DNA of 64,000 nt from an uncultured virus (IMG/VR IMGVR_UViG_3300009034_000029) (IMGVR_UViG_3300009034_000029), one strand, 5' to 3'. Positions 19,628 to 47,310 are shown, counted from the stretch's first letter. Numbers and translations are program-made. The notes: generated by a model not told the origin, from the letters alone.

Positions 19628-19727
19628 TAGAGGATGTGTAAAGCTGATCGGTTCAATACAATAAGGCGATATGATGACAGTTCAATTACTTGACTGTACA
19701 CATTGTAAGAAGGCACTTAGGAGTGAT

Positions 19728-23645: not shown

Positions 23646-23756
23646 GTGGAGGAAGTAGAGTGCCCAAATTGCCAGACAAAATTTGAAGCGAATCCAAATA
23701 GGATAACTACATGTCCGAACTGTGGGAATCAGTGGTGTGAGAATTGTGACGGATAA
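23646..23756 (+). CDS. 36-aa Cys-rich Zn-ribbon microprotein (not in the ORF track)
   Basis: gaggtga SD then GTG; MEEVECPNCQTKFEANPNRITTCPNCGNQWCENCDG*; overlaps the end of 23351-23686. Confidence 0.6.
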   Translation: MEEVECPNCQTKFEANPNRITTCPNCGNQWCENCDG

Positions 23757-24224
23757 ATGTTGTGAAGTTTGTACTAAGTTAGCTGAACAGACTGCAGCAA
23801 CCAACATGGCTCTTGGTATATGGGCGAGGTTTAGAGTAGTCGCCGATAATAAGAAAGCAGGATATTATAAGCATCGTGATTTTCTAGTTCATGATTCTTG
23901 CTTCTCTAAGTTTAAAGAGATATATGGTAAGATAGCAGTTAGACTACTACAAATCAAGGAGGAAGGATCTTATGGAAAACATTACTCGTAAGGGGTGGTA
24001 TTATGAAGTGTTGTGAAGCGTGTGCTAAGTTGGCTGAGAGTGTTGCTAATCGTAATGCGGTGTTAGGTCAGTGGGCTAATGTAAGTACAGTTAAGGATAA
24101 TGAAGAAGCAAAATATGAGAGTGTTGGAAGCTACTTAGTACATGAATCTTGTCTTGAGGGATTTAGAAGAATACATATGGATACTGTACATAGGATAATA
24201 ACTATTAAGGTGAAAGGATCATGA
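23722..24224 (+). CDS. Tandem paralogous Cys/His proteins (23722-23991, 24003-24224)
   Basis: KCCEVCTKLAE..LGIWA..LVHDSC versus KCCEACAKLAE..LGQWA..LVHESC. Confidence 0.7.
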
Positions 24225-25047
24225 TATATAATGCTCCGATATATAAGAGATGTCCACATTGTGGTAAGTTTATACATCCAGATCAGTATGATGCTCATAT
24301 AAATGCACATATGATAGAGGATGCAAAACGTAAGGGGTGATAAATTGAGTGCCTATGTCAGCTATTGGATTAATATGACTTGTGAAGATAATTCCACGAA
24401 TATACCACCGATATGTGCATGTTGTGGAACACCTATATATGGTAGTAGGAGTAAGTGGATAGATGGGCTTCAATATCATATAGACTGTGATGGTTGTTAA
24501 GAGGTGATTGTGATGACTGGTGTAAAAAAATCGATTGGCATGGATTATCTACCTGACATTAAATGTCATTGTGGTGGAAAATTATTACCAATAATCTTCA
24601 AGATATTAGAGGGAGAAAGACGTGATGATATGCTCCTTATAGCAGATATTGTTTGGAAATGTAGTAAATGTAAGACGATTATAGGTAGGGAAGAGTCCTA
24701 TGCGAAAACTAAGACGTCGAAGAAAAACCCCACGTAAAGCAGGTTGGGAGACATTTACGGCTTTTCAGAAGAGATGTTCGTGGAGGCAGTTTTATAATAC
24801 CTGTACGAATGTAGATGCCTGCCATATGATTTGTCGTATGACAAATTGTCCGGTATATACTAAAGAACGGAGGTGGATAAATGGTGAAGTTAACAGCCCA
24901 CGTTGAATTTAGAGATATCGGTATGGATAAATTAGAGTCACTACTCACTAAATTACATGGACATATATTTCATATGAAAGTAGGACGATTAGGTTCTAAA
25001 ACCTACACTGGAATAGTGACAAGTATAACTGTCGAATAGGTGGTGAC

Positions 25048-25578
25048 ATGACAGAAGTTAGAAGATCTGTACAAATAGCTGAGATTGGGATATTTGCGGC
25101 ACTCTATGCAGTGTTGACTTGGTTCTTGGCTCCGATTAGTTATATGGCGATACAGTTTAGGATGTCGGAGGTATTGAAGTCAGTGGTAATTAAACGGAGG
25201 CATATAATATTGGCCTTCGTGTTTGGTGTTGCATTGAGTAATGCATTTAGTCCATATGCGGGTATTTGGGAGTTTATCTGGATGCCATTCATCAATCTGA
25301 TTGGTGGCTTCGTATGTTGGGTAATTGGATCGAGATTTGCATACTATGTAAATATTAGTGAAGGACGAGCGTATAATATAACAGCGATATTTGCTTGTGC
25401 AGTGTACGGTGTAATCATTGCAGGTGGAGTAGCAATTATGTTGGACTTCGTATTGGGTATACCATTTATGGTATTGATTGGACCATTAGTGATCAGTGAA
25501 GTAGTGTTGTTAATAGCTTCGGCCTTGATTGTCTTACCCTTAGTAGATAAACTACCAACTTGGAGGGAGATGATTTAA
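25048..25578 (+). CDS. queT: QueT-like membrane transporter component (queuosine precursor)
   Basis: AALYAVLT..LAPISY.AIQFRMSE signature; multiple TM helices; adjacent to queC. Confidence 0.8.
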   Translation: MTEVRRSVQIAEIGIFAALYAVLTWFLAPISYMAIQFRMSEVLKSVVIKRRHIILAFVFGVALSNAFSPYAGIWEFIWMPFINLIGGFVCWVIGSRFAYYVNISEGRAYNITAIFACAVYGVIIAGGVAIMLDFVLGIPFMVLIGPLVISEVVLLIASALIVLPLVDKLPTWREMI

Positions 25579-25593
25579 CTCCCTCCCTTTTTT
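25562..25593 (+). terminator. Hairpin plus T-run
   Basis: ggagggag-atgatttaa-ctccctcc followed by ctttttt. Confidence 0.5.
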
Positions 25594-25610
25594 ATTATGG
25601 AGTGATGATG

Positions 25611-26339
25611 ATGAGTAATAATAGAAGAGTAGTAATATTATGGAGTGGTGGAATTGATTCTACTACCTTAGTATGGTGGGCAAAAAAGAAAGGAATGGAT
25701 GTTCGTACTCTGACTATTTATTATGGTCAGAAACATACTAAGGAAACTTCCTTCGTAGCGAAGCTTACAGAGAAATTTAGGATTGATAATAAGACTGTGG
25801 ATTTAGGAGCAATCCAGCCTCTTATTGATTATGGTGCACTAACTGGTACTGCTAATGTACCACAAGGTACGTATGATGAGAAGACCCAAAGAGTTACTAT
25901 TGTTCCAAATAGGAATATGATATTATTAGCCATTGCCGCTGGGTATGCTATAACATTGGGATCGTCGGTTATATTATATGCGGCTCACAGGAATGATCGT
26001 AGTATATATCCAGATTGTAGACCAGTGTTTGTTAATGCCATGAATGCTGCAATAGAAGCGGGGAATGTTTGGAGTCCCGTGGAGATATGGGCTCCTTTTA
26101 TTGATTATTCGAAGACTGAGATTGTAACGTTAGGTTTGAAATTAGATGTTCCATATGAGGATACTTGGAGTTGTTATGAAGGTGGAAGGAAGCCTTGTGG
26201 TAAATGTGGGACTTGTTTGGAGAGAACGGAAGCCTTTATGAACAATGTGGCTAATGACCCAGCATTGAACCCCAAGGATTGGATTAAGTTTATGGGGTAT
26301 TATAAGGATGCCAGAATTAGTGACGGTAACAAAACATAG
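25611..26339 (+). CDS. queC: 7-cyano-7-deazaguanine synthase
   Basis: SGGIDST, YGQKH, VPNRN, YPDCR, TWSCY, CGKCGTC.ER. Confidence 0.95.
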   Translation: MSNNRRVVILWSGGIDSTTLVWWAKKKGMDVRTLTIYYGQKHTKETSFVAKLTEKFRIDNKTVDLGAIQPLIDYGALTGTANVPQGTYDEKTQRVTIVPNRNMILLAIAAGYAITLGSSVILYAAHRNDRSIYPDCRPVFVNAMNAAIEAGNVWSPVEIWAPFIDYSKTEIVTLGLKLDVPYEDTWSCYEGGRKPCGKCGTCLERTEAFMNNVANDPALNPKDWIKFMGYYKDARISDGNKT

Positions 26340-26598
26340 TTTGATAAAATTGATCGAAGAGTATAATGATCACACATTAGGTAATGCTGTCACTACTAAG
26401 TCCTTCGCATGGTACTTAAAGAAGAAACAGATAATCTTACCTTCACAGAAGTTAAGGTTTGTTCACGAATGTTTGAAGAAATTGGAGAAGTGGGGTATAA
26501 TCACTCCTATTAATAGAAGACAGTATGTATGGGGGATTAAACCAAAATGGAAACGACCGAAGAAAGATTTAATATTATCACTTCTGCGACAACAGTAG
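26308..26598 (+). CDS. Small wHTH-like protein
   Basis: VHECLKKLEKWGIITPINRRQYVW wing pattern. Confidence 0.5.
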   Translation: MPELVTVTKHSLIKLIEEYNDHTLGNAVTTKSFAWYLKKKQIILPSQKLRFVHECLKKLEKWGIITPINRRQYVWGIKPKWKRPKKDLILSLLRQQ

Positions 26599-28901
26599 AT
26601 AAGAAGACAACCTATGATTGGTTGTTCCTTAGGAATGAGAAGGGAAGAAAGGTTCTAAGGATTACTGGTAGGAAGTCGTATTTTTATGTGGAAGGTGATG
26701 GAGCATATAAGTCTTTATTTGGTCAGAGTTTGAAGAGATTGGTTTATAATAACCCAGGTGGGGTCTTAACGAATAGAAAGGATTATAATAGACATTATGA
26801 GGCTAATATTGAACATCATATGAGAATAAGGATAGACGAGGATTTAAAGTATGGTGTGAAGTTAATTGGTGATAGGATTGAATCTTGTGAGCCAATAGAT
26901 GTATTACCAACTATGTTTTTCATAGACCTGGAGGTAGAATCTCCCCCAGAGATTTTTCCGCTACCAAGGAAGGCAGATTACCCAATAGTGAATATTGGAA
27001 CTATTCATGGCAATAAGGCTGTGATGTATGCGTTAGAAGGTAGTGAAGAAGGTAGGCATCAAGGGGTTAGAGGGAAGAATGTAGAGGTTATAGTTTTTAA
27101 TGATGAAAGGAATATGTTGGAGTATTTCTTGGAATATTTTATAGAATGTGATCCAGATGAGATTACAGGCTGGCATGCTGAAGGGTTTGATGTTTTATAT
27201 TTATTGAGGAGAATGCAGAAGTTAGGAGTACCTTATAGGAGAATATCTCCTATTGGGAAAGTTAGGTTTAAATTGATTAAAGATCAACTGAGGGTCAATA
27301 TTCTCGGTAGGGTTATATTGGATACTCTCTCAGCGTTTCAGAAGATACATAGTCCATTTCATGGACGACTACCGAGTTATAGGTTATCGTATGTACATGC
27401 TTATTTATTCAAACATGATGAGCGAGAGGATTTTGGTGATAGGATTAAATATTTGAGAGATAATGAGAAGTATGAACAAGTTGCAGATTATTGTACGCAG
27501 GATGTTGTTGATACGTTAGAGATATTTGAAGAAGTAGACGTGATGAGGTATTTTGAGAATATTAGGAAGATTGTAGGCTGTAGGGTGGAGGATATACTTT
27601 CTAATAAGAGAGTAGTTGATGTATTATCTTTAAGACAGGCTAAGGAAGATAATGTGGTATTACCGAGTGTGAGTTATACCACTGCTGTTGAGAAAGTCTT
27701 GGGAGGTAAGGTATTAGAACCTACAGTAGGATTACACAGATATGTTGCTGTTTATGACCTGAAGGCGTTGTATCCAGCTATTATTATGGCTAAGAATATT
27801 TCTCCAGAGATGATATTACCAGATAGGACTTTTAGGAAAGATGAAGTTGGGTTTATTCCTAAGATTATGAAGAAGCTTATTGTTGTAAGGCAGGCTGTTC
27901 AGACAGAAATGAAAAAGCATAAACCTAAGAGTGATGTCTGGAATAAGTTGTATGCAGAACAGTTTGCGTTAAAGTTCTTAGTGAATTCAATTTATGGTGT
28001 GTTAGGTCATGAGTCATACAGATTGTATGATCCTAGAGTGGCTAATGCAATTACTCTAGAGGGTAGGACTTTAGTTTTGAAGTTGAGAGATTTATGTGAG
28101 GAAAAAGGATTTGTAGTATTGTATGGAGATACAGATTCTATATTCGTTGCTGTGAATACAGCAGAAGAAGCAGTTTATTTGGAAGTAGAGATTAATAAGT
28201 TCCTAGCGGTTTATTCTAAGGAGTTAGGAGCTGAATATCCGATGATTGTAGAGTTTGAGAAGTATTACAAGACCTTAGTTTTTAAGAAAAAAGTGAAGAG
28301 AACGAAAAGGCGGGCTAAACGAGCTATTGCTGGAGCTAAGAAGATTTATAGTGGATATATGTTGTTACGAAGTGGTAAGTCAGTGGATCCTGAAAGAGCA
28401 TTGGATGTTGTTGGAGCTAAGAAGTCAAGTACGGCATTATTGACTCAGAAGGTATTAGAAGGTGTACAGAGGGCAATATTAATTGAAGAGGATGTAAAAA
28501 AGGCTTTGGATATTGTAAAGGAAGCTTGGGATAATTTTGAAGACTATCCATTAGAGGAGATTGGGATACCTAGAAGTATAAGGGCTACGAGAGAGGATTA
28601 TAAGGCTCCTTCATTGCATTTTAGAAGTTCTGAATATATGATGGTCAATTATGGGTGGTTGTTTAGACAGGATGAGAGTCCTAAGTTATTGTATGTCAAG
28701 AAGGTTCCTGAGGGTATGCCACATACTAAGGCTATTACATTTCAAAGTAGTCATAAGATACCCGAGGGCTTTGAAGTTGATTGGGCTGTTATGAGAGAGA
28801 AAGTTATTAGGTCTACTGTTGAGACTATTATTGAAGCCACTGGGTTTGATTGGACATCAATCTTCCACGGTGGTAGGCAAGCAACATTAATGGAATATTG
28901 A
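26547..28901 (+). CDS. polB: Family B DNA polymerase with 3'-5' exonuclease
   Basis: DLEVE, GFDVLYL, YCTQDV, YDLKALYPAII, KFLVNSIYG, YGDTDS; C-terminal QATLMEY PIP-box-like motif. Confidence 0.96.
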   Translation: METTEERFNIITSATTVDKKTTYDWLFLRNEKGRKVLRITGRKSYFYVEGDGAYKSLFGQSLKRLVYNNPGGVLTNRKDYNRHYEANIEHHMRIRIDEDLKYGVKLIGDRIESCEPIDVLPTMFFIDLEVESPPEIFPLPRKADYPIVNIGTIHGNKAVMYALEGSEEGRHQGVRGKNVEVIVFNDERNMLEYFLEYFIECDPDEITGWHAEGFDVLYLLRRMQKLGVPYRRISPIGKVRFKLIKDQLRVNILGRVILDTLSAFQKIHSPFHGRLPSYRLSYVHAYLFKHDEREDFGDRIKYLRDNEKYEQVADYCTQDVVDTLEIFEEVDVMRYFENIRKIVGCRVEDILSNKRVVDVLSLRQAKEDNVVLPSVSYTTAVEKVLGGKVLEPTVGLHRYVAVYDLKALYPAIIMAKNISPEMILPDRTFRKDEVGFIPKIMKKLIVVRQAVQTEMKKHKPKSDVWNKLYAEQFALKFLVNSIYGVLGHESYRLYDPRVANAITLEGRTLVLKLRDLCEEKGFVVLYGDTDSIFVAVNTAEEAVYLEVEINKFLAVYSKELGAEYPMIVEFEKYYKTLVFKKKVKRTKRRAKRAIAGAKKIYSGYMLLRSGKSVDPERALDVVGAKKSSTALLTQKVLEGVQRAILIEEDVKKALDIVKEAWDNFEDYPLEEIGIPRSIRATREDYKAPSLHFRSSEYMMVNYGWLFRQDESPKLLYVKKVPEGMPHTKAITFQSSHKIPEGFEVDWAVMREKVIRSTVETIIEATGFDWTSIFHGGRQATLMEY

Positions 28902-34176: not shown

Positions 34177-37100
34177 CTATATCTCTGGGGGTTCGTTAGA
34201 TATTGCTCTAAACGTAGCCTGCCAGTTGATTATCCCAGCATGCCGTTCTCTCTCAAAGACTCTCTCTAAAACACCACGCATAACATCTCTATTGGTACGC
34301 AAATAGAGTATCTTTTTTCTTTCCTGCCAATACCATAACAACATCATGTTAGTATCCGCGTTACTTCCAAATAATCTACCTTGTATCATGAATGACCTAG
34401 ATTTAGTCCCATAAGGTTCAATTCTTTCTACACCATCCAGTGTTGCCGTCCTAACACTAAACTTTGTCACGACACTATCTGCTCTCTCCATACCTATATC
34501 CTTACTATGAGCAAACTCAGGTTGATCAGTTAACGTATACAAATCATCTTCCTGTACAAAGTCAGTTCTGAATGAGAATGCACCACCACCACTATGATAT
34601 GGAACAATAAGATGATTACCACCTGGTTTTAGCACAGGTTGTTCAGAAAATGATCCATATAACTCTGAAGTATCCAACCAACATTCAATATAGAAATCAT
34701 GTAACGCTGCATATGAACCAGATGTCACTGTTTCTTCATTACGAACTCGTAAATATAATTTACGAGTACCAGCCCAGTTATCCAAACCATAGTAGTACTT
34801 TGTAATGTTATCTTCGGTATTAGCCCATGAGATCACATTAGTAAAATTAGCAGTCGTACCGTCTGACGAAAGTGCCAAAGTCATATCAGCATCAACTTGT
34901 AACACTTCTGACTTAGATACAATTCGTCCACCTATCAGTGGGAATCCGAGATCAAACTCGTAAATAATCTTACTGTTATTATACGCAAGCCTCATATAGG
35001 GATCACTAGCGAAACCATAAAATGCTATCTTCCCGGCCCCATCCGGTGAGACACCCGGACTGTAAAAGATGGCATCTGACATTCCCTCATACGTAAAGAA
35101 ATTCGCTTTATATGTATATTTAGCCCTACCATTCGGATAGAATGTATATTTCCCACCAGTCAGCATCCTAATATTATCCATAACCAATGTCTTGTTCGTC
35201 GGCGTGCTTTTCAGCTTTAACTCTGGATGTTCTGCATATGTCGTGTAGAACATCAAGTCACCTGTAGTTGCAGCCCATACAGTTCCATTATACCAAATAC
35301 GAGAACCATTACCATACTGATCAGTAGACATAAACCTTATTGATCTATAATTAACATTATCTAAAGCACCCGTTCGGCTCAATGTAATCGCATACGTAGC
35401 AGTAGTATCCATATCAACATTCTCTAAATTTACATGCAACCAATAATTATTACTACCCACCGCACGGTTCCAATTAGCATTACCAAATCTCCTAAAAGCC
35501 AACGGATTACCGGTTGGCAACCCACCAGATGTAGCAAACAACCTAATATCTACACTATCTGTTGGAGTACCATAATTCTGTCCCGGATTAATTATGATAC
35601 TTCTCAAATCGGGCTTATGCAATATAAACGTTTGACCTATTTGCTCCCCATTCGTTGTTGTTCTCCCAAATGCACCATTAGTATCATGTTGCCATTGAGC
35701 TTGATCAACATGCTCAGAACCTATTCCCACAACTTTACACGTTGGTGCTATACAAGCCGCACGTGAACCTTTAAAGTATAATCCATCCAAGTAGATTATA
35801 GTCGTATTTGCATCTGTAGAGAGCCACTCAAATCTAATATGATTTACCTCAGCCCAGTCAGGTGATCCTCCACTAGTCCAACCAGTTGAACCAGTACCTA
35901 CCGGTACAATCACCTTATTCCATTTATTAGCTACTATCCCAGTTATTGTACGCTCTCTGTAATTTGCACTACCAAGTGAAGTCAACCTAACTTTGAAATC
36001 CTCAGAGGAATTTTGATACACCCAAAATATGAGACTACTATGAGAACTAAGATCCATCTCAAGATTACCATAAACATCGTCTTGTATATCGTAGCGACCG
36101 TACTCGACAAGCGACTGTAACGAAACCGTTCGAGTGATTTTGATGCTGTAATCTCCGACAACAACTTGCTCTCGAGATAACCCAGTACTACAGTTAGCAT
36201 TACTTACCCATAATTTCTTCATATAATCAAGTGCACTATCTTGCACATAATTCTCAGTCCACTCATCTCTACCAGTAGGAATATCACCAGTCTTATCAGT
36301 TAATATTAAGTTCTCATTGTCTTTGAATGTCGGAATATACTCAATTTCCACCCAATCAATAGTGTATATCCGACCTGCTCCAGGAGTCCAGGTCCTAAAT
36401 CTAATATCTCCGTCTTGAAATTCATCATCAACAGCACTAAGTACCTCTACACCATCCTGATACACCTTAATACTATTTCCCCTTACATCAATCACCCATT
36501 CATAATAAGTACCCACTACTACATTCACAGATGTATTAGAGTCCAAAACAGTTTCGGACCCACCAACCACTCTCGATAATCTAATCTCAGTAGGCGAACC
36601 TGTTGTTCTAATACCAAACTCATAATGGTTATTATGATCCACACGTCTAAAATAAGTATACGTATAAGTATCTGCATGATCCAGTTTACATCTTTGACGT
36701 ATTCTAAAATCAACAGGGAAACTTCCAATAAGAGGAGTTGCCTCTTCATTATTAGCATCTAGAACTAGTGTTCCAGAGCTTACAGCAGGCGCACCATTCG
36801 TTGATGCCCAATTGAAAGCACCGCTACCATCACTTTCATAATTGAAACGATCTGCAAATATTGTAAGTGGTATAACCTGAAAATCATCCCAATAGACATA
36901 ACCCGCTGCATGATAGAACAACGGCTTAAATACAATCCTACCGATCTCTTTAGTTGTTGTAGTGGTATGATAGGTCACAAACCGTTTCCATTCAGTTGTT
37001 ACCGGAGTCGTAGTCAGTGATATAGCATTTGGTGAAGCACTAGCAGTATTGGTGCCATCTGTGTAGTGAAAATCTGCGTTCAGTCTGACATAACCAGTAC

Positions 37101-37437
37101 CGTCTGGAGAACTAGCATTGACTAATTTGTACCAACCAACGATCATCCACTTAACACATCGTCTATACATATCACCAATAGGTACCCTACATTCAAGTAA
37201 ACTAGACGCATCACCAATACCTCCATACATCTCACAAGCATATTTACCCGAATGCACATGCTTACGCGTAATCCTTACATTACCACCGACTGATAAAGTA
37301 GATAGCCATCTACCAGCATTATGTAATGAACTAGCATAATCATCTGGATCTAATGATCCAGTCTCAAACCCACCATTAGGTAATAAATTTGGCATAACAG
37401 TCTTATACACACCCTGTACATAACTACTCATCATCAT
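34177..37437 (-). CDS. Large tail protein with carbohydrate-binding/lectin-like domains and a Dit-like C-terminus
   Basis: NLLPNGGFE CBM-like start, LamG-like segment, beta-rich; last gene of the tail operon. Confidence 0.7.
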   Translation of the reverse strand: MMMSSYVQGVYKTVMPNLLPNGGFETGSLDPDDYASSLHNAGRWLSTLSVGGNVRITRKHVHSGKYACEMYGGIGDASSLLECRVPIGDMYRRCVKWMIVGWYKLVNASSPDGTGYVRLNADFHYTDGTNTASASPNAISLTTTPVTTEWKRFVTYHTTTTTKEIGRIVFKPLFYHAAGYVYWDDFQVIPLTIFADRFNYESDGSGAFNWASTNGAPAVSSGTLVLDANNEEATPLIGSFPVDFRIRQRCKLDHADTYTYTYFRRVDHNNHYEFGIRTTGSPTEIRLSRVVGGSETVLDSNTSVNVVVGTYYEWVIDVRGNSIKVYQDGVEVLSAVDDEFQDGDIRFRTWTPGAGRIYTIDWVEIEYIPTFKDNENLILTDKTGDIPTGRDEWTENYVQDSALDYMKKLWVSNANCSTGLSREQVVVGDYSIKITRTVSLQSLVEYGRYDIQDDVYGNLEMDLSSHSSLIFWVYQNSSEDFKVRLTSLGSANYRERTITGIVANKWNKVIVPVGTGSTGWTSGGSPDWAEVNHIRFEWLSTDANTTIIYLDGLYFKGSRAACIAPTCKVVGIGSEHVDQAQWQHDTNGAFGRTTTNGEQIGQTFILHKPDLRSIIINPGQNYGTPTDSVDIRLFATSGGLPTGNPLAFRRFGNANWNRAVGSNNYWLHVNLENVDMDTTATYAITLSRTGALDNVNYRSIRFMSTDQYGNGSRIWYNGTVWAATTGDLMFYTTYAEHPELKLKSTPTNKTLVMDNIRMLTGGKYTFYPNGRAKYTYKANFFTYEGMSDAIFYSPGVSPDGAGKIAFYGFASDPYMRLAYNNSKIIYEFDLGFPLIGGRIVSKSEVLQVDADMTLALSSDGTTANFTNVISWANTEDNITKYYYGLDNWAGTRKLYLRVRNEETVTSGSYAALHDFYIECWLDTSELYGSFSEQPVLKPGGNHLIVPYHSGGGAFSFRTDFVQEDDLYTLTDQPEFAHSKDIGMERADSVVTKFSVRTATLDGVERIEPYGTKSRSFMIQGRLFGSNADTNMMLLWYWQERKKILYLRTNRDVMRGVLERVFERERHAGIINWQATFRAISNEPPEI

Positions 37438-40225
37438 CCCTCGTACTGGTAACTTCTCTTAACCTTGCCCTAAATTTGACATCCTCAATTCTGCCACTTT
37501 GATGTTGGGGTTGGAATAAATCAACCACACATTTTATCACATGCCTACCAGTCATTACATACACTGGCTTCTTCGAACTAGCCCAATCACCGTATTTATC
37601 CTTATCCTTTAAAAAGGTCTGTGCAGCCAATACACCATCAACACTGATTTGTCTGGCCTCAAAACCCCTAATAACTATATAATCATCCCTATCCAAAATA
37701 GTCTGCCTACTAGCCAACATACGTCTATTAATATCAAACTTCGTATCAACACACATTACTTCCGGAACGTCTGGATGCTCTCCTAGATACACAGCTTTTT
37801 GTTGTTGTTTGGAAATATCTATATGTTCCAATTGAGCTGACCAACCATCAGTTTGTGGGACAAGATCATTACTCGTGCCTATTAACATAGGAACACTATT
37901 TAGCCCCAAAGAAGGACATCTAATCAATGCATCAAACTTTAACCCAGTATATCTAACCCAACCTGCATGTACCTCACTCTCTGTATCTGCTGCTGAATTC
38001 AATTCAACCTTAATATACACAACATTCGAATCAATATCATCAATCTCAAGAACTTTACCATTGGCCTCACTTCTAAAGTCCTGATTACTTCCAGACCCAT
38101 TTACACTTAATAATAGCGTCCACGTATAATTATCAACACTATAATACACCTTAAACCTACCAGATGCAACTTCATTACTTGATATATATCCACCAACATT
38201 CAAGTCTATCTTACCAAACTTCCACCCAGCAGGTAATCTAAACTCACTCACATAACTTGCAGTCGAACCAATTGTAGTATTATCAGACCATCCAACAGTA
38301 TACCAAACATCCTTATTAGTCCCAACCCATGGTTTCCTCGGACTATACCCATAATAATACGGATACCCACTAGTATCTATAATCGACCACCATAATGGAT
38401 CACAATCACCAATGGCTTCAGTATACAACCTACTATCATATAAATACCTACCATGACCGGTTGGCTCAATAGTAATTGTAGTTCCAGGCACTACCCTACT
38501 AGCTTCTAATCTCTTCCATGAAGTCTGATTCTCCAGCACTACATCAGACTCTCTATCATAATGAAGTTTAAAGTACATATCGTAAGTTGTATTATACCAC
38601 GTACCGTTATCATATCTCCATAATATCCCATCATCATACGGGCCAGGATTTTGAGTCCTTACTTTCCTATAATGAGAATCATTCTCAGTAGTATTACTTA
38701 ATACAATTGCATACATAGTCCCAGGAGTCAACTCTACCCCCAAATTCACATATATCGCGGCATCAGGTTGTGCTTCAAGACGATCCCATATTTCATACGG
38801 AATTATAGTTCTCGCTAATTTCCAATTTGTATACGGTTGATTAGACCCATCCACTGGAGTAACATCAATCCTTATATCAGTCGTTGGAGTACCAAAATCA
38901 GCTCCGGGCATAATAGTCAAACCTCTCAACCGTGAACTTTGTGCAGTAAATGTTTGTCCAAGTCTTTGATAATTACCAGTAGCCGTAGTACCAAATTGTG
39001 TTTCAATATTCTCCGAAATATTAGCCTGATCTACAATCTCAACAATAGGATTACCAGTAACATCAACTTTAGGAGCCGAAGCTAATAAATTCGTTCCAGT
39101 TCTAGTAATTGTAGCAGTATCATATTGAAATGCAGGAGTATAAGGCTCCACAGCAACCCAATTCCAATACATAGTATTAGAAGTAACCTGCACACGACCC
39201 ACCCTAACAGAACCTCTATAAGTCTTCGTAATCTTCGTACTTGTAGCTATAAGTTCACTATTGAAATAAAATGAAGAAGTATTCCCATACACATGTATCT
39301 CAAATGGATATCCAACACCATATGTTATGGCAGTTGGCAATGCAGTCCAACTAATCACATCACCATCCTGATCAACCAACTTATATTGGTCTGTCGAGGA
39401 ATTAATATGCCACCTATAATATATAGTCCCTGCACTATTACACCTAAATGTAAATGTAGCCTCATTATCACCAGTAACAAACTGCATTGTTCCGCTCAGT
39501 ATGTAATCTCTCCACTCAAACGACTCTGGATATAATGTTGGGTCTAATCTAGCTTCAGCAGTTCCACCCAACATTGTCATTGTTCCGTTACCTATTGCTG
39601 CAACTCTCACAATATCATCTACTTCATCCCATTGAGATGGAGGATAACTACCACCTGATTTTTCGTTCATAAAATTATCAAAAAACATCTGACGTGGACT
39701 CAAAACCAAATCATCAATCCAAGCTTCGCCAATCCTCGTTGACGTACTTGTATGAGTAACATAAACCCTAATATAATTTATTACCTTAGCATTTGTAGAA
39801 TAATCAGCCTCATCATACGTCCAACCTTGAGCCTTTTCATTTCCAGGAGCAAAATCTAATATACACTGATTACCTGAATTAGTCCCATCAATGTAATAAA
39901 ATATACAATAAATCTGTACAGTCCCACTAGAACCACGTTGTATGGATTTTGCCCAAGCACTCAATCTCCATTTATCCATTCTTGCATATTTCAGTGTTGG
40001 ATATATATCCTGATGTATGGTTGTACTGACCTCAGAAGGATAAACATTCACATAAAGACTTTTACTCCCAATACGTGATTGATCACCAACAATCTCAGCC
40101 TTACCTGAGTCTTGTACCCAAGGACAATTATCCTCATTTAACCCATAATCCTCAAACCCAGGATCCTTAATCAAATTAGGCATAGCCATTATACTAGGCT
40201 GAATTGTATGTGTTTGGCTAACCAA
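37424..40225 (-). CDS. Large tail protein paralogous to 34177-37437
   Basis: NLIKDPGFE, GQTF.. module and similar C-terminus. Confidence 0.7.
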   Translation of the reverse strand: MVSQTHTIQPSIMAMPNLIKDPGFEDYGLNEDNCPWVQDSGKAEIVGDQSRIGSKSLYVNVYPSEVSTTIHQDIYPTLKYARMDKWRLSAWAKSIQRGSSGTVQIYCIFYYIDGTNSGNQCILDFAPGNEKAQGWTYDEADYSTNAKVINYIRVYVTHTSTSTRIGEAWIDDLVLSPRQMFFDNFMNEKSGGSYPPSQWDEVDDIVRVAAIGNGTMTMLGGTAEARLDPTLYPESFEWRDYILSGTMQFVTGDNEATFTFRCNSAGTIYYRWHINSSTDQYKLVDQDGDVISWTALPTAITYGVGYPFEIHVYGNTSSFYFNSELIATSTKITKTYRGSVRVGRVQVTSNTMYWNWVAVEPYTPAFQYDTATITRTGTNLLASAPKVDVTGNPIVEIVDQANISENIETQFGTTATGNYQRLGQTFTAQSSRLRGLTIMPGADFGTPTTDIRIDVTPVDGSNQPYTNWKLARTIIPYEIWDRLEAQPDAAIYVNLGVELTPGTMYAIVLSNTTENDSHYRKVRTQNPGPYDDGILWRYDNGTWYNTTYDMYFKLHYDRESDVVLENQTSWKRLEASRVVPGTTITIEPTGHGRYLYDSRLYTEAIGDCDPLWWSIIDTSGYPYYYGYSPRKPWVGTNKDVWYTVGWSDNTTIGSTASYVSEFRLPAGWKFGKIDLNVGGYISSNEVASGRFKVYYSVDNYTWTLLLSVNGSGSNQDFRSEANGKVLEIDDIDSNVVYIKVELNSAADTESEVHAGWVRYTGLKFDALIRCPSLGLNSVPMLIGTSNDLVPQTDGWSAQLEHIDISKQQQKAVYLGEHPDVPEVMCVDTKFDINRRMLASRQTILDRDDYIVIRGFEARQISVDGVLAAQTFLKDKDKYGDWASSKKPVYVMTGRHVIKCVVDLFQPQHQSGRIEDVKFRARLREVTSTRDDDE

Positions 40226-41255
40226 TCCTCATAACCTCCTTGGAGATTTGATATCGTATCTGTTCAAACGTACAGTAGTCTTCTGGAATTTCAGTAAGGG
40301 ATTTCCCACCAGACCGTAAGTGACAAACCTTATAACATCCCCCACAAGGATACACCAAACAGTTATAACACTGTTCATGATCTAGACCTCTCCAAAACTC
40401 AACTTTGTTTTTGTCTACTCCAGTCTCAACATGACCTATCCTAAACTCTGGTTGTATCAGACGATGACAAGGATAAATAAACCCATCTAAACCTACGGCA
40501 GTCGAACCTTGACAGGCTCCACAGGTCCAGCGAGAACGAGTATGCCTTGGCATCTTTTTCTGCAACCGAGTTATGGTCTTATCAACAAAAACTATCGATA
40601 TATCATTTTCTTTTGCCCAGTACGCGGCCTTACGATATTGTCTTTCCAATTCCTTAAAATCATTAATTGTGTAAGTCCTATAGCTATCAACAACTTTATT
40701 AAACGCAATACTCTCAAACCCAATCTTCACAGCCTCCTTAACACTATCAACCAAATATGGGATAGCTTCAGGGCTAACCGCCATTGCACAGCGTAAATTC
40801 AAGAGATGATAAACACGCATGAGGTTGATAGTCCTCGCAACTAACGGATAACTTTCCCTTCCATTCCACATTGGTCGCATGTAATTTTGGACGAACGGAA
40901 CCCCATCAAACGAGACTAGGGCGCCAAAATCATTTTCTGCAAAATACTTGACCCGCTCGACATTCCAAGGAGTCCCGTTCGTTGTAACACCAGCACGTAC
41001 GATCCTTCCCCTTTCACGTTCTTCAAGTACCCTCTTAAATGTATGTTTGACGAGATGCCAGGAGAGCATTGGTTCGGTACCAAACAAAGATACACTACAT
41101 TTACCGGAGGCTTGGCCGAAGAACCAATCGAGCGTGGAATCTAGTAGCCCCACTGACATCTCATCTTTACCTTTATCCTGTAGGAAACAATACCTACATT
41201 TCATATTACACTTATCATTAATATGTAACACTACGCTGGAAAATTCTATCGACAA
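40218..41255 (-). CDS. Radical SAM/SPASM domain maturase
   Basis: CNMKCRYC, FGTEP, TTNGT, VSFDG; SPASM CGAC...DGFIYPCH...CYNC...CGGC...C...YC. Confidence 0.9.
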   Translation of the reverse strand: MSIEFSSVVLHINDKCNMKCRYCFLQDKGKDEMSVGLLDSTLDWFFGQASGKCSVSLFGTEPMLSWHLVKHTFKRVLEERERGRIVRAGVTTNGTPWNVERVKYFAENDFGALVSFDGVPFVQNYMRPMWNGRESYPLVARTINLMRVYHLLNLRCAMAVSPEAIPYLVDSVKEAVKIGFESIAFNKVVDSYRTYTINDFKELERQYRKAAYWAKENDISIVFVDKTITRLQKKMPRHTRSRWTCGACQGSTAVGLDGFIYPCHRLIQPEFRIGHVETGVDKNKVEFWRGLDHEQCYNCLVYPCGGCYKVCHLRSGGKSLTEIPEDYCTFEQIRYQISKEVMRIG

Positions 41256-41577
41256 GTAACCACCCCGCAGCTCCTAGTATGCCTCCAAATCCACCTAATG
41301 ATAGATAAGCCCACCAATACGTTGTAAGTGCATACGTATGACCCAAGAGAATAAAATGCCAATAAAAATCACCACACACCCCAATGAACAGTAATATTAT
41401 CGGATACCAAAGACTTATATCAGCCTCACGTACCATCATACATACAAACATAATCATTAGAGGCTCAACAATAATATTCAACTGTGACATCCCAATCACA
41501 TAATTGTTATGAAAGGCCCACATAGCCATCTCTATCATACCAAGTGTCTCTAACATAAACCTAACTCTAATATTCAT
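41218..41577 (-). CDS. Small multi-pass membrane protein
   Basis: Hydrophobic helices; overlaps both the hub and rSAM genes. Confidence 0.6.
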   Translation of the reverse strand: MNIRVRFMLETLGMIEMAMWAFHNNYVIGMSQLNIIVEPLMIMFVCMMVREADISLWYPIILLFIGVCGDFYWHFILLGHTYALTTYWWAYLSLGGFGGILGAAGWLLVDRIFQRSVTY

Positions 41578-43336
41578 GCACATCACCACCCTCTTCACAT
41601 GTCTGACAATTCAACGTCTCGCAACTCACCTGATTGGCTGTCTCGCAATACTTCTCACATCCAGTCTGACATGCACATATATCACAATCAGTTTGACCAG
41701 CTGCAACTTCACAACTCACCTGACATGTAGAGGTCTCACAAGCCGTTGGACAATCAACCAATAACTTAAACTCCGACCTAATCTCCTCAATATTTCCTCC
41801 CTTAGCCCATAATAATCTCAGATCATACCCTGCACTTGCAACTACATCACTTAAATCTGGCTCTTCCTTACCCAGAGACACAATAGTCCTGAATGACCTA
41901 AAATCATGCTTAACCTGCTTTACTCTCATCCTAAATAACTGAAAGCCATTCCAACACTTTATCACATCTCCAGGATTGATATTGAAATTCAACCTATTCA
42001 CAGTAACCGTTACATACTTATGTTCATCCTTATAATGATCCAACAATGCATTAGCTAGATTAGTTGCCTTTATAGAAGCCTGATTTGTCAAATCCATAAT
42101 TGGTAAATTTCTCAATCCATGTCTTGCAATACTTGTACAATCCTTAACATCCGCAGCCACTCTTCCAGTCACAACAGCTATTCCATCAAACCATACATGT
42201 GATCCAGAGTTTTGATTATCCGTTGGCTTAACCGAAATTATTATATATTTCCAATCGCTCCAACTACAAGTCCCGTATGTACTGAAACTAGATAGGGGTA
42301 GATCAATAAGATGCCATGTATTGGAAGCCCCATTAAGGATATAATATTTATACTTGTAATCTGTATCCCATGTCTTAACAAAAAAGACGTCTATTGAATT
42401 TAATTCTGAACCTCCACCGTTATCAGGTAGGAAATCAGATCTAATCCAAAATCTTATCCTTTCGTGATTTGACAAATCCCTCGTTATAGGTTGTGATGCA
42501 CTGCCTAGTACTCCTCCAGCTCGTTCACCCTCGACTATAGGTCCATTGGTACATTGGACAGAATGTATCCCAACAATACTCGGATCATTTACCTGCTGTA
42601 TACTTGTTGTTTGATCCCATATAGTCCACCAGTCTGTAATATCATTCTCCGTCCAAGCATCCCCATCTGAAGGTATAGGTTGGTTGATTGACCCATAAAT
42701 CAATATTCTATTATAAATCTCCCTTGCACTTCTCTTATATGAATAATCAGTTAAATCATTCTTCTCCAACACGACCTTCGATGGTCTACTATATCGCGGG
42801 AAAAAATTCAGATCCTTATTCTCATCAACGTAGAAATCATACCCAAATTGTCCACTACTATCCTTTGCTAGTCTCGCAGCCATCTGTACTGCCTCGAATA
42901 ACGTTTTGCCTCTGAGGAACCATCGTGATGCTGTTTCCGCTGAATTTATTACATTAGCATATGTCAAATTATCCTGATAGACATCAAGTAGCCTTTTAAC
43001 AATCTCATGTGCTTTAAGTGTATCTATCGAGATATAATCAATCTGCTTCCCCTGTAACAAGTACCCATAATCTCGTCCAGTAAATCTTATTTCATTAGGA
43101 GTAATTATCTTTTCCTCTATAACCCCTGCAGTGATCAAGGTCTCTATATTACCATTTACCTCATACAATTTAACATCAGTCATATTGAATATCTCTGCAT
43201 ACTCTCTCGTTCTTGGCAATGAGAAAGTAAAACTCCCCGATGCACTATTAATAGATCTTGTTACATCAAAATCCTCTACATAAGCAATTCTAGGACCCTT
43301 ACCTCTCCATTCTAAATCTACCCTATAATATGTCAT
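41567..43336 (-). CDS. Tail hub/baseplate protein with CBM-like insertion and Cys-rich C-terminal tail
   Basis: Follows the tape measure gene; hub-like motifs (FTGRDYG, YDFYVD, IYNRILIYG, SIARHG, INPGDVI); 12 Cys in the last ~62 aa. Confidence 0.75.
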   Translation of the reverse strand: MTYYRVDLEWRGKGPRIAYVEDFDVTRSINSASGSFTFSLPRTREYAEIFNMTDVKLYEVNGNIETLITAGVIEEKIITPNEIRFTGRDYGYLLQGKQIDYISIDTLKAHEIVKRLLDVYQDNLTYANVINSAETASRWFLRGKTLFEAVQMAARLAKDSSGQFGYDFYVDENKDLNFFPRYSRPSKVVLEKNDLTDYSYKRSAREIYNRILIYGSINQPIPSDGDAWTENDITDWWTIWDQTTSIQQVNDPSIVGIHSVQCTNGPIVEGERAGGVLGSASQPITRDLSNHERIRFWIRSDFLPDNGGGSELNSIDVFFVKTWDTDYKYKYYILNGASNTWHLIDLPLSSFSTYGTCSWSDWKYIIISVKPTDNQNSGSHVWFDGIAVVTGRVAADVKDCTSIARHGLRNLPIMDLTNQASIKATNLANALLDHYKDEHKYVTVTVNRLNFNINPGDVIKCWNGFQLFRMRVKQVKHDFRSFRTIVSLGKEEPDLSDVVASAGYDLRLLWAKGGNIEEIRSEFKLLVDCPTACETSTCQVSCEVAAGQTDCDICACQTGCEKYCETANQVSCETLNCQTCEEGGDVHEY

Positions 43337-45684
43337 CTAAATGGCAACCCCTTAGTCCTTAGTTCCTCCGCAATGGCTGCAGCTATGTCACTCCCAGTTT
43401 TTCTTGGATCAGATACACTACCCTGTACGGTAACATTAATTACCATTGAGGTACCCCTCGGCCATTCTGGGGAACCTCCTTCTTGTTGACCTGCTATCCA
43501 TTCTGCTCCTGGTCCACCAACAGTCGTCAATCTACCTCCTGTTGCAACATCCGCCTCTTCCATTTGTTTGGCCCAATCAACATCCCTACCTTGTAGTGCG
43601 GCCACCCAATCCATGGCAATTCTACCTGCTACTCCACCAACTAATGCTCCTGCTCCAGCTGCTCCAATAGCTAATGCTGCAGATGCTGCAGTACCCATTC
43701 CAGCTAATCCACCAACAGCTACTCCTAACTCAGCTTCTAATGCACCAGCAGTAACAACACCTGCTCCTCCTAAACTTCCACCCAATGCACCAAATGCAGC
43801 AGTTGCAGCTCCCATTAACGGAGCAGCTGCTCCAATAGTAGCCATAGCTGCACCAATAGCCTGTAATGCCATACCTAGTCCCAACAACAATGGAGTTAAC
43901 TTAACTAATTCTGCTAACAATCTCCCGAATGCCTCTGCACCACCCATAGCAGTAACCATTTCCTGGAATGCTTCAGCTAATGATATAACAGCTGGTATGA
44001 CACTTTCAATAAATGATGTAGCAAGATCCTTTAGGAATTTCTGAAATTCAGGATCCTCTAATAATTCCTTTAAGTTCCCTATACCATCCTCAATAGCAGG
44101 CAACAACGCTGATCCAATCTCAACAGCTACCATATCAATTAAATTCATTAAATCCGCAATTCTATCATTAAACGTTCTCATCTGCATATTCGCAACATCT
44201 TCAGCAGTTCCACCAACATCTTCAAGTGAACCCCTGATATTCTCAAACTCTTTATCCCATGCTATTAGTATATTCAATACCCATTCAGACTGATTTCCAA
44301 ACAGATCCTGTATAAGCAATTGCTTCTCCAGATCAGTACTATATCCCTGAACCCTCTCTCGGAGTTGATCTAAGATATAACTAAAATCTGCAAAGTTCCC
44401 AGAAGCATCATAGATTGATATACCCATATCCCAACTTTTATCAATCAGTCTTGAAAAGAACTCATCTAACCTCCTTCCAGCAGTCGAAACATTCATTCCC
44501 TGTCTCTGTAACATAACCATCATAGCTATAACTTCTTCAGCTGTCAAACCAAACTTCATAGCTTTTTGTGAGGCATAAGCAAATCCTGTGCTGAGCTCAC
44601 TCATCGATGCACCTGTTAGATAATTAGCCTTAGTCAATAGATCCGCAATATATGCAGCATCTGTCATCTCTAAATTAAACTGATGCATTGCATTCAATAA
44701 AATATTCGAAGCTTCTGCAGCCTCAATAGTATTAGCCTTTGCAAACATCATCACTATATTTAGATACTCCAAACTCTCTGCAGTATCAATCCCTTGCATC
44801 TCTAATTGCAACGCAGCTTTAGCAGCATCTCCTAACCTAATATTCCACTCATCAGCCAATTGTAAGATATTCTCACTTACCTGTCCAAATGCCTGATCAA
44901 GATTATCAGCATACCTACCACTCAAATCCATCGCAATGTTAAGATTCATCATGGCTTGTTGGAAGTCAGCCGCTCTATCCACAATCTGCTTTATTACACC
45001 AATAATTATCCCAGAAATAGCAAGTAACCTAAAACCCATACGCTCCATAGTCCTACCCAGATATGCAATCCTAAACCCAGCTTTCTCAACAGCTCTACCA
45101 TAATCTTGTATTTTAGTCCGACCTTTTCGTAGTGCCTCCATATTTTCATCGCGTATTTTCTTTAACCTATATTCCTCTTTAATCTCTTCTTTTATTGACT
45201 CTGTCAACAATTGAGTTTGAACTCTCATCTGCTCTATAAATTCTCCCCTAGCAGCCCTACCCAATTCTCTATATGCCCAAGCTAACTCATACGATGCTTT
45301 TGTTCCTGCCACCATTGTTGTCGATGCAGTACCCACATACTTATGAACATCTTCCTTTATAGAAGCAAGCGAATTAGCTATTTGTTCTCGCATCATCATA
45401 ATTGCTTGACCTTGAGACTCCAATTGGGTCTTTACAGCCTGTGGAATTTGTACTGAGATAGTTGTACCTACTGCATCATAAAGTTTTATCATGCCTTCGA
45501 CTTCGGTTTTTACCGTCTTAACAAATTCTTTAAAGGAATCTCCCATAGCTTTCGTAGTATTCTTTACGCGAGTAGCAAGTTTTTTCATTTGCTTAATCAT
45601 AGGGTCAACTACTGCACTTACATGCAACCCTATTTTGGCTGTACTTTCCCACTCGCCTAATTCTTTTGGTGATAAACCTGGCAT
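43333..45684 (-). CDS. Tape measure protein
   Basis: Long helical Ala-rich protein with a TP901-like core (AADF..AM, IADLLTKAN, AGRRL); follows the tail chaperones. Confidence 0.9.
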   Translation of the reverse strand: MPGLSPKELGEWESTAKIGLHVSAVVDPMIKQMKKLATRVKNTTKAMGDSFKEFVKTVKTEVEGMIKLYDAVGTTISVQIPQAVKTQLESQGQAIMMMREQIANSLASIKEDVHKYVGTASTTMVAGTKASYELAWAYRELGRAARGEFIEQMRVQTQLLTESIKEEIKEEYRLKKIRDENMEALRKGRTKIQDYGRAVEKAGFRIAYLGRTMERMGFRLLAISGIIIGVIKQIVDRAADFQQAMMNLNIAMDLSGRYADNLDQAFGQVSENILQLADEWNIRLGDAAKAALQLEMQGIDTAESLEYLNIVMMFAKANTIEAAEASNILLNAMHQFNLEMTDAAYIADLLTKANYLTGASMSELSTGFAYASQKAMKFGLTAEEVIAMMVMLQRQGMNVSTAGRRLDEFFSRLIDKSWDMGISIYDASGNFADFSYILDQLRERVQGYSTDLEKQLLIQDLFGNQSEWVLNILIAWDKEFENIRGSLEDVGGTAEDVANMQMRTFNDRIADLMNLIDMVAVEIGSALLPAIEDGIGNLKELLEDPEFQKFLKDLATSFIESVIPAVISLAEAFQEMVTAMGGAEAFGRLLAELVKLTPLLLGLGMALQAIGAAMATIGAAAPLMGAATAAFGALGGSLGGAGVVTAGALEAELGVAVGGLAGMGTAASAALAIGAAGAGALVGGVAGRIAMDWVAALQGRDVDWAKQMEEADVATGGRLTTVGGPGAEWIAGQQEGGSPEWPRGTSMVINVTVQGSVSDPRKTGSDIAAAIAEELRTKGLPFR

Positions 45685-46332: not shown

Positions 46333-47310
46333 CTATTCCGGAATATCTGTCTCGTCGTTCCAAATATCTATCTCTATGATATCTGTCCCTGTAGGCCCAA
46401 GTACTGCTCTCCATTCAACTGGTTGGACGATTCGATCTCTAGTTCTTAACGGTACGCCTGTCGCTGCGAATATAACTTTTGGAATGTTTATATCCATTTT
46501 ATATGGAAAACCCACACCTGCATCAACAGTTGATTCAAATGCCACTTGCATCTGATATGCCTCTAACGGCACAGTTGGTGTCAATGCATCAGTTGTTCCA
46601 AGAACTCTCTGATATTGAGTTGAATCATCGAATGAAAAGTCCGCTGTACCACTTACAGTTCTATTCTGAGGATATAGTCCCTTCAAAAACCGACTACCTA
46701 GTCTTGTAACATCTGGAACTAGGTTATTCTCTATAGTCAATCTAAATGCCTCTAAAGTTGTAATAGCACCAGCCTCAATTTCTGTTGTCCCAGCTTGATG
46801 GAACACAAATGGAGGTTGATCTCCATATGCTGGTGAAGTCCCAGTTGTAGTAGTTACAATTTCCTCTTTGTTACAAATCAGATCTGCAGTACCCTTTACG
46901 ATATCATTCATCGCGGCTTCAATCGTCAGTCTATTCACACCAATTCCTATAAGTTTCCTCCACTGTATACTGTCATCACAAATCTCTGCCTTGAGACTTG
47001 GAACTGTATCCGCAGCACGTATCTCATGCCTATACGCAGTCGTTGTACCTTCTATATTAGGTGTACTCTCTCCCAATACTGCCTTAAGCAATAATGGTAT
47101 ATCTAACGGATCCACTGGGAATGCAATAGACCCACCTAGATCAAACCTTCCACCTACATGCATATGTACATCACGTGCTCTAGTTCCCTGTATATATATA
47201 GGATTCTGATTTGGCCGAATATCCTCACTCTCTACGTTGATGAATTTTACCGGTGCAGTCCATGCTTCCGCAAAGGCTGCTTCTTCGTCAAATCCAATAT
47301 ATCTTGCCAT
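46333..47310 (-). CDS. Major tail tube protein
   Basis: Acidic beta-rich protein, FRLTIENNL...RTVSGT motif, position in the operon. Confidence 0.8.
   Translation of the reverse strand: MARYIGFDEEAAFAEAWTAPVKFINVESEDIRPNQNPIYIQGTRARDVHMHVGGRFDLGGSIAFPVDPLDIPLLLKAVLGESTPNIEGTTTAYRHEIRAADTVPSLKAEICDDSIQWRKLIGIGVNRLTIEAAMNDIVKGTADLICNKEEIVTTTTGTSPAYGDQPPFVFHQAGTTEIEAGAITTLEAFRLTIENNLVPDVTRLGSRFLKGLYPQNRTVSGTADFSFDDSTQYQRVLGTTDALTPTVPLEAYQMQVAFESTVDAGVGFPYKMDINIPKVIFAATGVPLRTRDRIVQPVEWRAVLGPTGTDIIEIDIWNDETDIPE

Follow-up and report, generated by a model that had tools for sequence, protein, structure and literature searches.

Known thioether-forming systems and the viral locus

Thioether stapling by enzymes is known from small secreted peptides and, so far, from a few cellular proteins. 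Here we describe a locus in which an enzyme of this type is part of a viral tail operon and is paired with Cys repeats in the hub; in relatives, such repeats also occur in fibre-like tail proteins. The locus lies in a stretch of 64,000 nucleotides (nt) from an uncultured virus (IMG/VR IMGVR_UViG_3300009034_000029), analysed at its full length and called the window below. It encodes a radical S-adenosylmethionine (SAM) enzyme with a SPASM-type C-terminal region, as well as a baseplate hub protein that ends in a cysteine-rich tail. Our preferred reading, to which we give a probability of roughly 0.6, is that the enzyme is a virion-maturation enzyme that installs thioether cross-links in the hub tail, encoded two genes upstream, and yields a stapled tail tip.

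The PapB/PapA system (freyrasin, Paenibacillus polymyxa) resembles the window in that it pairs a radical SAM enzyme carrying two auxiliary clusters with a substrate in which repeated cysteines are followed by acidic residues. According to the PapB study, Cys is linked to Asp or Glu at positions i+1 to i+7 C-terminal of it, which covers the CE and Cx4E arrangements of the window, and the substrate Cys is bound to an auxiliary cluster (PMC12373016). That study also states that the recognition element (RRE) of PapB, an enzyme for peptides that are made by ribosomes and modified after translation (RiPPs), recognises the leader (PMC12373016). The window enzyme differs from PapB in having neither an RRE nor a leader to dock, and its putative substrate is the end of a virion hub of 589 amino acids (aa), not a short secreted precursor. 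The repeat units differ as well, being C[E/Q]xx and not CXXXD, and the setting is a viral tail operon.

A second precedent comes from QhpD/QhpC and from CrpC/CrpA of Methanococcus voltae. In the CrpC paper, these SPASM radical SAM enzymes form ranthionine-type links on protein-sized, Cys-rich substrates that are not exported peptides; QhpD and, since 2026, CrpC carry out such chemistry at this scale, the CrpC thioethers being formed on a 29-kDa protein (PMC13692751). Both enzymes are described there as using an RRE, unlike the window enzyme, and neither is viral or acts on a virion part; the word ‘phage’ has 0 occurrences in that paper (PMC13692751). The likeness to QhpD and CrpC is one of proposed mode of action, not of family membership.

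CteB, which acts on SCIFF peptides, is the closest solved structure, and its substrate is Cys-rich with T/S/Q/E-rich spacers, as is the window tail. Since the two align only from CteB residue 98 onward, the window enzyme lacks the RRE found at the N-terminus of CteB. The CXXX-repeat system (TIGR04115) likewise has period-4 Cys repeats; the window enzyme scores far below its cut-off. On the structural side, Mu gp44, T4 gp27, VgrG and the tail tip of Haloferax tailed virus 1 (HFTV1) share with the window hub both their fold and a gene position after the tape measure gene. Our literature searches brought up no account of a hub that ends in a Cys-repeat tail or is served by a radical SAM enzyme of its own. 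A search that left subscription journals largely outside its scope likewise returned no paper on a radical SAM enzyme modifying a structural protein of a phage or other virion. Thioether formation on proteins by radical SAM/SPASM enzymes is already known, and it is the viral setting that appears to be new. Particular to this locus are the hub as carrier, the C[E/Q]xx repeat class and a compact, PapB-like enzyme that lacks an RRE.

The hub, its cysteine-rich tail and the adjacent enzyme

The assignment of the 589-aa protein as a tail hub is supported by a profile match, by the domains of its relatives and by its predicted fold. Residues 19–236 match phrog_400 (‘tail protein’, E = 3.3e-14), and distant relatives bear YQBQ and Mu GpP-like Pfam domains. 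An AlphaFold2 model made with 64 relatives in the alignment has a predicted local distance difference test score (pLDDT) of 80.9 and a predicted template modelling score (pTM) of 0.72. Its top Foldseek match is the HFTV1 tail (E = 7e-14), and it matches 3cdd, 1wru, 9h4p, 8v3w, 9g8s, 1k28 and others at a probability of 1.00; the matched folds include the MuSo2 43-kDa tail protein (3cdd), Mu gp44 (1wru), diffocin, the phiCD508 needle, VgrG and T4 gp27. An inserted beta-sandwich gives partial Foldseek matches to the carbohydrate-binding modules CBM11 and CBM16. Both the fold and the location of the gene, directly 3′ of that for the tape measure protein, are those of a hub or Tal-type protein, and in the solved tails that the model matches the hub is a trimer. 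Searches with the hub gave zero Pfam families at E ≤ 0.01 and, with the tail included, zero NCBIfam families at the same threshold, so that no SCIFF precursor or other precursor model matches. A tblastn search of the hub against GenBank phages gave zero matches, and among viral contigs the only close relatives of the hub and of the enzyme are in the window's own contig.

Translation of the open reading frame (ORF) shows that the hub ends exactly in CPTACETSTCQVSCEVAAGQTDCDICACQTGCEKYCETANQVSCETLNCQTCEEGGDVHEY. The preliminary description of this DNA had reported a hub end with 12 Cys, an overlapping ORF for a membrane protein, a complete radical SAM/SPASM enzyme and further tail genes, all of which the translations bear out. 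Twelve Cys fall within 52 residues (529–580), whereas the first 526 residues of the hub contain only 4. Given the Cys content of 1.03% in the 36 long ORFs of the window, a 52-residue stretch would hold 12 or more Cys with a binomial probability of 7e-14, and the hub alone among these ORFs reaches 9 or more Cys per 50 residues. The residue that follows Cys is Glu in six cases and Gln in three, and for several other Cys a Glu stands at i+5, giving several Cx4E arrangements. In the structural model, residues 525–589 have a pLDDT of <50, so that the tail is predicted to be disordered on its own.

Pfam finds a single domain, Radical_SAM (PF04055), in the enzyme. The C-terminal Cys pattern includes CGAC...Gx4C(HR) and Cx2Cx4Cx2Cx3C...C. 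Its nine Cys, between residues 245 and 328, would be enough for two auxiliary clusters. In an alignment of enzyme relatives (A1), C245, C263, C296, C299, C304 and C307 are invariant, and in a second alignment (A2) C328 is invariant too. The best NCBIfam family is PapB (NF047865; E = 2.6e-52, 178.1 bits), aligned over model positions 2–323 of 330. The runners-up are nif11 (116 bits), the SCIFF maturase (TIGR03974; 100.2 bits, cut-off 425), QhpD (TIGR03906; 97.6 bits, cut-off 453), CcpM (86 bits), CXXX-repeat (TIGR04115; 83 bits, cut-off 350) and the anaerobic sulfatase-maturing enzyme (anSME; 79.4 bits); CrpC (TIGR04463) scores 40.2 bits against a cut-off of 525. From PapB down to CXXX-repeat, these families are cross-linkers of Cys peptides or of proteins. 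Eight viral relatives of the enzyme score 136–225 bits on the PapB model, all under its cut-off, and PapB is the best family for seven of them. Among structures in the PDB, the best match is CteB, a SCIFF thioether synthase (5wgg, E = 3.3e-20, aligned from chain residue 98), and anSME also matches (4k37, E = 2.5e-11). Taken together, homology places the enzyme in the thioether-forming (PapB/CteB/QhpD-like) branch of peptide maturases. Family placement by hidden Markov model (HMM), which the preliminary description had proposed as a check, ranks PapB first, under its cut-off. The accompanying label ‘SCIFF/ranthipeptide-like’ can be refined: the enzyme lies nearer to PapB (178 bits), with the SCIFF maturase at 100 bits and CXXX-repeat at 83 bits, and the tail falls in no NCBIfam family, SCIFF included.

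The enzyme is compact. With just 15 residues before the cluster motif and 17 after the last SPASM Cys, it could not accommodate an RRE; other maturase models align to the enzyme from model positions 77–98. The public gene call (P0005) is 283 aa long, a length that fits a start at Met63 and would leave out the CX3CX2C motif. A TTG start at 41255, preceded by a GGGGTGG Shine-Dalgarno-like run, restores the motif. Truncation of the start may hide the enzyme from automated annotation, and in GenBank phage records its relatives are unannotated or ‘hypothetical’. When the enzyme was modelled in complex with hub residues 515–589, three 4Fe-4S clusters and SAM, the score was 0.02, and the result was not used either way.

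The same enzyme and substrate might carry out another chemistry, for example sactionine formation (S to C-alpha), C–C cross-linking, epimerisation or Cys oxidation. Homology does not fix the reaction, since all family scores are under cut-off, and the weaker matches include sactipeptide and cyclophane maturases (RumMC 56, AmcB 49 and YhhB 42 bits). However, the best families (PapB, SCIFF and QhpD) are ranthionine or thioether formers that act on Cys-rich substrates, the best structure is CteB, and the near-invariant Glu/Gln after Cys fits a side-chain acceptor. We therefore consider one of these other reactions unlikely.

Pairing of the enzyme with cysteine repeats across viruses

Pattern-based searches with the enzyme alignments gave 118 loci (42 viral, 52 metagenomic, 23 genomic and a second copy of the window contig). 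The enzyme was located in each by an HMM from alignment A1, and ORFs were called crudely, as ‘gene-like’ stop-to-stop frames of 60 aa or more. Grouping the enzymes of these loci at 60% identity yields 41 clusters. In 18 of the 20 clusters that have a member on a viral contig, an ORF on the same strand and within 3.7 kb of the enzyme reaches 9 or more Cys per 50 aa, and a Cys-rich neighbour occurs in 6 of the 21 clusters known from metagenomes or genomes only; these counts are not fully independent, as related loci share ancestry. The remaining 15 clusters include ∼450–460-aa enzymes of Lachnospiraceae and other Bacillota, in which short precursors would escape the 60-aa floor. With one locus taken per viral cluster and ORFs of 100 aa or more considered, 21 of the 177 that lie within 4 kb of a radical SAM gene are Cys-rich, compared with 0 of the 92 located farther away (Fisher p = 1.5e-4).

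Several carriers of the Cys repeats are tail proteins. Those of loci L005 and L010 match phrog_31 (central tail fibre J), and locus L004 encodes a 1209-aa virion protein whose Laminin_G_3 domain is flanked by two repeat regions with 26 and 41 Cys. The repeats are internal to proteins of 900–1270 aa, where they lie between folded domains (e.g., at residues 522–644 and 867–1066 in L004). In L044, the repeat regions span residues 148–238, 554–630 and 744–894, and the Cys spacing in the last of these is 4 in 36 of 37 intervals. One group of viral enzymes (L022) has CXXX-repeat TIGR04115 as its best family, at 198 bits. At the level of sequence, this survey shows the enzyme type and C-[E/Q]-x-x repeats embedded in tail proteins travelling together across diverged viruses.

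Two further features of the viral loci may be recorded here. Two to four tandem radical SAM/SPASM paralogs stand beside the Cys-repeat protein in L007, L009, L014, L017, L079 and other viral loci. In L151, a 739-aa protein contains 151 Cys, 143 of them in one period-4 region.

A reverse scan started from the repeats. A DNA pattern for four C[EQ]xx units plus a further C gave at least 121 matches in viral contigs, and 80 loci were fetched. Short frames with simple 12-nt tandem repeats make up most of the matches. Open frames of 150 aa or more contain 15 matches, eight of them with diverse units and seven of low diversity. A radical SAM gene is found within 6 kb of six of the eight diverse repeats (L119, L123 (on the L004 contig), L134, L138, L151 and L173) and near none of the seven low-diversity tandem repeats. 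The contig of another diverse repeat, L144, ends 2 nt past the ORF. The eighth, L198 (6001–7455, minus strand, on a 142-kb viral contig), has diverse CE/CQ repeats with five pattern matches and no radical SAM gene within 6 kb; it is either an exception to the pairing or a case in which the enzyme lies farther off.

Enzymes and repeats also correspond at the level of clades. In a quick maximum-likelihood tree of 39 enzymes, which has many long branches and repeat labels set by eye, the window enzyme groups with those of L004, L044 and L134 (Shimodaira–Hasegawa-like approximate likelihood-ratio test (SH-aLRT) 99), and all four neighbours in this group bear C-[E/Q]-x-x repeats. The CxCxxxCY, CTCE and G/S-rich CxxxC repeat classes each have a supported enzyme clade of their own, and the clade of the window enzyme is separate from that of L022 and L038. 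The pattern is suggestive of a repeat class that tracks the enzyme clade, kin sharing labels.

The hub family gives a third view of the pairing. An exhaustive phmmer search with the hub returned 248 representatives at E ≤ 1e-3, and 149 relatives were listed and examined. Among the matches listed, a Cys tail with 11 or more Cys per 50 aa is present in 5 of 149, and none of the remaining 144 exceeds 5 per 50. All five tails are of the C[EQ]xx class, lie at or near the C-terminus and can be aligned with the window tail. Across the hub and these five relatives, C529, C533, C538, C551, C556, Q557, C560, C564 and C577 are invariant, and a terminal C-x-x-C-x-x-G-G ending is common to the window tail and two of the five. 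Two tailed relatives, P0067 and P0066, adjoin each other in locus L240, right beside a radical SAM gene whose product is 38% identical to the window enzyme (E = 2e-63). The hub is split there into two adjacent proteins of 308 and 345 aa (L240:6001–9027), each with a C[EQ]xx tail ending in ...CxWCWE, and the Cys spacing in P0066 is 4 in 12 of 13 intervals. The gene order in L240 is tape measure, hub N-terminal part with Cys tail (P0067), second tailed protein (P0066), radical SAM enzyme, a 112-aa ORF and an 875-aa protein homologous to the 933-aa tail protein of the window (E = 2e-12).

The central proposal of the preliminary description, in which the adjacent radical SAM/SPASM enzyme acts on a RiPP-like, Cys-rich core joined to a structural protein of the tail, gains support from this comparative evidence (the survey, the reverse scan, the tree and L240). 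It had also proposed looking for co-occurrence of Cys-tailed hubs and radical SAM genes across viral genomes; for Cys repeats in general, such pairing holds in 18 of 20 viral clusters and for 6 of 8 diverse repeats.

The same comparisons bear on whether the Cys tail is simply a structural module, held by metal, Fe–S clusters or disulfides, that needs no enzyme, with the radical SAM protein acting on another target. Cys repeats are able to bind metals, and tail-spike tips and PAAR proteins bind Fe or Zn. The predicted disorder of the tail alone would fit such a module, as would the diverse repeat of L198 with no radical SAM gene within 6 kb. A module independent of the enzyme is nonetheless quite unlikely, given the co-occurrence of enzyme and repeat in the viral clusters, the enrichment of repeats near the enzyme and the tracking of enzyme clade by repeat class. 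Moreover, a Cys-rich tail is missing from 144 of the 149 listed hub relatives, and the two tailed relatives with a contig locus adjoin the enzyme.

Alternatively, the hub might be a giant leader or carrier whose modified tail is cut off to give a free RiPP-like peptide, and the 126-aa membrane protein might serve in export or immunity. As in RiPP precursors, the core-like segment is at the extreme C-terminus, and the small membrane ORF sits between the substrate and enzyme genes, overlapping the hub stop by 32 nt and the enzyme start by 38 nt. This ORF has at least two hydrophobic segments in a hydropathy scan and a coding score per codon of 0.04 in its own frame, compared with −0.79 and −0.40 in the other frames (log-odds). 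It matches no family in Pfam, NCBIfam or PHROG, and its Atlas matches are below 0.9 and name no family. The preliminary description had kept peptide release as an option; we now regard it as improbable. No protease or transporter family was found among the ORFs flanking the enzyme (Pfam, NCBIfam and PHROG), and L004, L044 and L240 all lack a counterpart of the membrane ORF. Because the repeats of relatives such as L004 and L044 lie inside 900–1270-aa proteins, between folded domains, the Cys tail is better read as a structural segment than as a released peptide.

An anSME acting on a viral sulfatase-like protein, also raised preliminarily, is extremely improbable despite the anSME matches (TIGR03942, 79 bits; 4k37) and weak alkaline-phosphatase-superfamily and arylsulfotransferase-like ORFs in the window (20561–22154), since the score is far under the cut-off of 349 and below those of six peptide-maturase families, the sulfatase-like ORFs are 18 kb away on the other arm, and the motif that we take to be the sulfatase signature, [CS]xPxR, is absent from the 210-aa ORF and, in its extended form, from every frame of at least 100 aa in the window.

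Proposed maturation of the tail tip and its genomic setting

Several observations weigh against stapling of the hub tail by the adjacent enzyme. The enzyme falls short of the PapB equivalog cut-off of 340 bits and lies under every curated NCBIfam cut-off, and it lacks the RRE, the domain with which PapB docks its leader. The window tail is a short, irregular form of the C[EQ]xx repeat, with a Cys-to-Cys spacing of 4 in only 4 of 11 intervals. One third of its units have Gln, not an acid, after the Cys, and PapB cross-linking is reported for acidic acceptors only (PMC12373016). Two viral enzyme clusters (L013 and L042) lack a Cys-rich neighbour even when the threshold is lowered to 5 Cys per 50 aa, L198 carries its repeats with no radical SAM gene within 6 kb, and single-protein searches gave no contig locus for three of the five tailed hub relatives (P0091, P0157 and P0193). 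The shared ancestry of the loci and the long branches and by-eye labels of the tree also belong on this side of the balance.

If the enzyme does staple the hub tail, the reaction would take place during late gene expression, in the reducing cytoplasm. The enzyme would cleave SAM and abstract a hydrogen from a side-chain carbon of the acceptor, and this carbon would be joined to the sulfur of a Cys held on an auxiliary cluster, with a loss of 2 Da per link. The acceptor would most plausibly be the Glu (perhaps also the Gln) that comes after almost every Cys, at i+1 or i+5. We propose a serial reaction along the tail on the basis of the PapB, QhpD and CrpC precedents and of the Glu residues at i+1 and i+5, which could give as many as 12 links in each chain, or 36 in a trimeric hub. 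Since the enzyme has no RRE, it probably recognises the repeat itself or the folded hub. As the tail ends the hub, and the hub is trimeric in the matching solved tails, the stapled tails of three chains would come together at the distal tip. Stapling would yield a rigid, redox- and protease-proof segment at the distal end of the hub, which may act as a tip, as a plug or as a stalk to which the two large tail proteins encoded downstream attach.

A bolder version of this scheme is doubtful, though worth stating. We conjecture that the RRE-less enzyme might recognise the repeat on the assembled or assembling trimer and link the three tails covalently, perhaps from chain to chain, so that a metal-free needle or plug forms at the very tip of a non-contractile tail. 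Such a structure would be an enzymatically hardened counterpart of the metal-stabilised gp5 and PAAR tips. The hub could then belong to a class of virion proteins, widespread but as yet undescribed, whose maturation relies on RiPP-type radical chemistry and whose enzyme clades have diversified together with distinct Cys-repeat ‘codes’.

The hub and the enzyme belong to the minus-strand arm of the window (about 34–62 kb), which is a late structural operon comprising terminase, tube, tape measure, hub, membrane ORF, enzyme and tail proteins (Table 1).

Table 1. Positions and supporting evidence for the hub, the enzyme and other features of the late operon, in window coordinates
Feature	Position	Strand	Basis or remark
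Terminase	56856-58358	(-)	Late operon
Tail tube protein	46333..47310	(-)	PF18906 Phage_tube_2, E 1.9e-26; phrog_290
Tape measure protein, 783 aa, directly upstream of hub	43333..45684	(-)	PF10145 PhageMin_Tail, E 5.5e-31
Baseplate hub / Tal-type tail protein, 589 aa	41567..43336	(-)	phrog_400 and fold matches; inserted CBM-like beta-sandwich
Hub Cys-rich C-terminal tail, residues 529-589	41570..41752	(-)	12 Cys, mostly C-[E/Q]-x-x; proposed substrate; end CQTCEEGGDVHEY
Small hydrophobic ORF, 126 aa from GTG (public calls: start Met8)	41218..41598	(-)	Hydropathy, coding score
Radical SAM/SPASM enzyme, 345 aa, TTG start, PapB-like, without RRE	40218..41255	(-)	PF04055, E 7.6e-9; NF047865
CX3CX2C radical-SAM cluster motif, C16/C20/C23	41187..41210	(-)	ORF sequence, motif search
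SPASM-type Cys region	40272..40523	(-)	C245, C248, C263, C296, C299, C304, C307, C311, C328
933-aa tail protein, paralog of next gene	37424..40225	(-)	Start overlaps enzyme stop by 8 nt
1086-aa tail protein	34177..37437	(-)	Weak concanavalin/Laminin_G_3-like domain, PF13385, E 3e-5, under cut-off

The 933-aa and 1086-aa tail proteins are related to each other (BLASTP E = 2e-20) through a common N-terminal ‘MPNL[IL]..GFE’ domain and a common C-terminal region. They are probably receptor-binding proteins attached to the hub. Residues 191–337 of the 1086-aa protein resemble the 1209-aa Cys-repeat protein of L004 (E = 1e-4).

The host could be bacterial or archaeal. The best full-length matches of the family-B DNA polymerase (26547–28901, plus strand) are to haloarchaeal tailed viruses, at about 25% identity and E values down to 6e-54. 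The terminase matches actinophages and a Thermus phage, and the tape measure protein matches Bacillota phages. No tRNA genes were found in the window. Coding-strand GC skew is very strong, at about +0.3 in the plus arm (1–34 kb) and −0.3 in the minus arm (34–62 kb), with the switch at about 34.1 kb; in the last 2 kb of the window GC falls to 30% and the skew flips.

A plus-strand cluster at 17097–26339 resembles a module for DNA modification of the 7-deazaguanine type that also carries additional sulfur-related genes. It includes a QueE-like radical SAM protein (17097–17765; phrog_2076, E = 2e-60), a QueC-like protein (25560–26339; E = 1.5e-67) and a PAPS-reductase domain protein (22105–22929; PF01507, E = 4e-35), all on the plus strand. 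Also in this region are a Nal1-like protease (18620–19627, plus strand), a weak arylsulfotransferase-like ORF (20561–21529) and an alkaline-phosphatase-superfamily ORF (21522–22154).

If the preferred reading of the hub and its enzyme is true, it would describe a new kind of virion maturation, in which radical chemistry makes covalent, redox-proof links before or during tail assembly. Such links would explain rigid, protease-resistant tail tips in reducing habitats where disulfides fail. RiPP enzymology would gain cross-linkers for large proteins that are directed by repeats and independent of an RRE. For viral genomics, the pair of a Cys repeat and a radical SAM enzyme would become a marker for the business end of uncharacterised tails.

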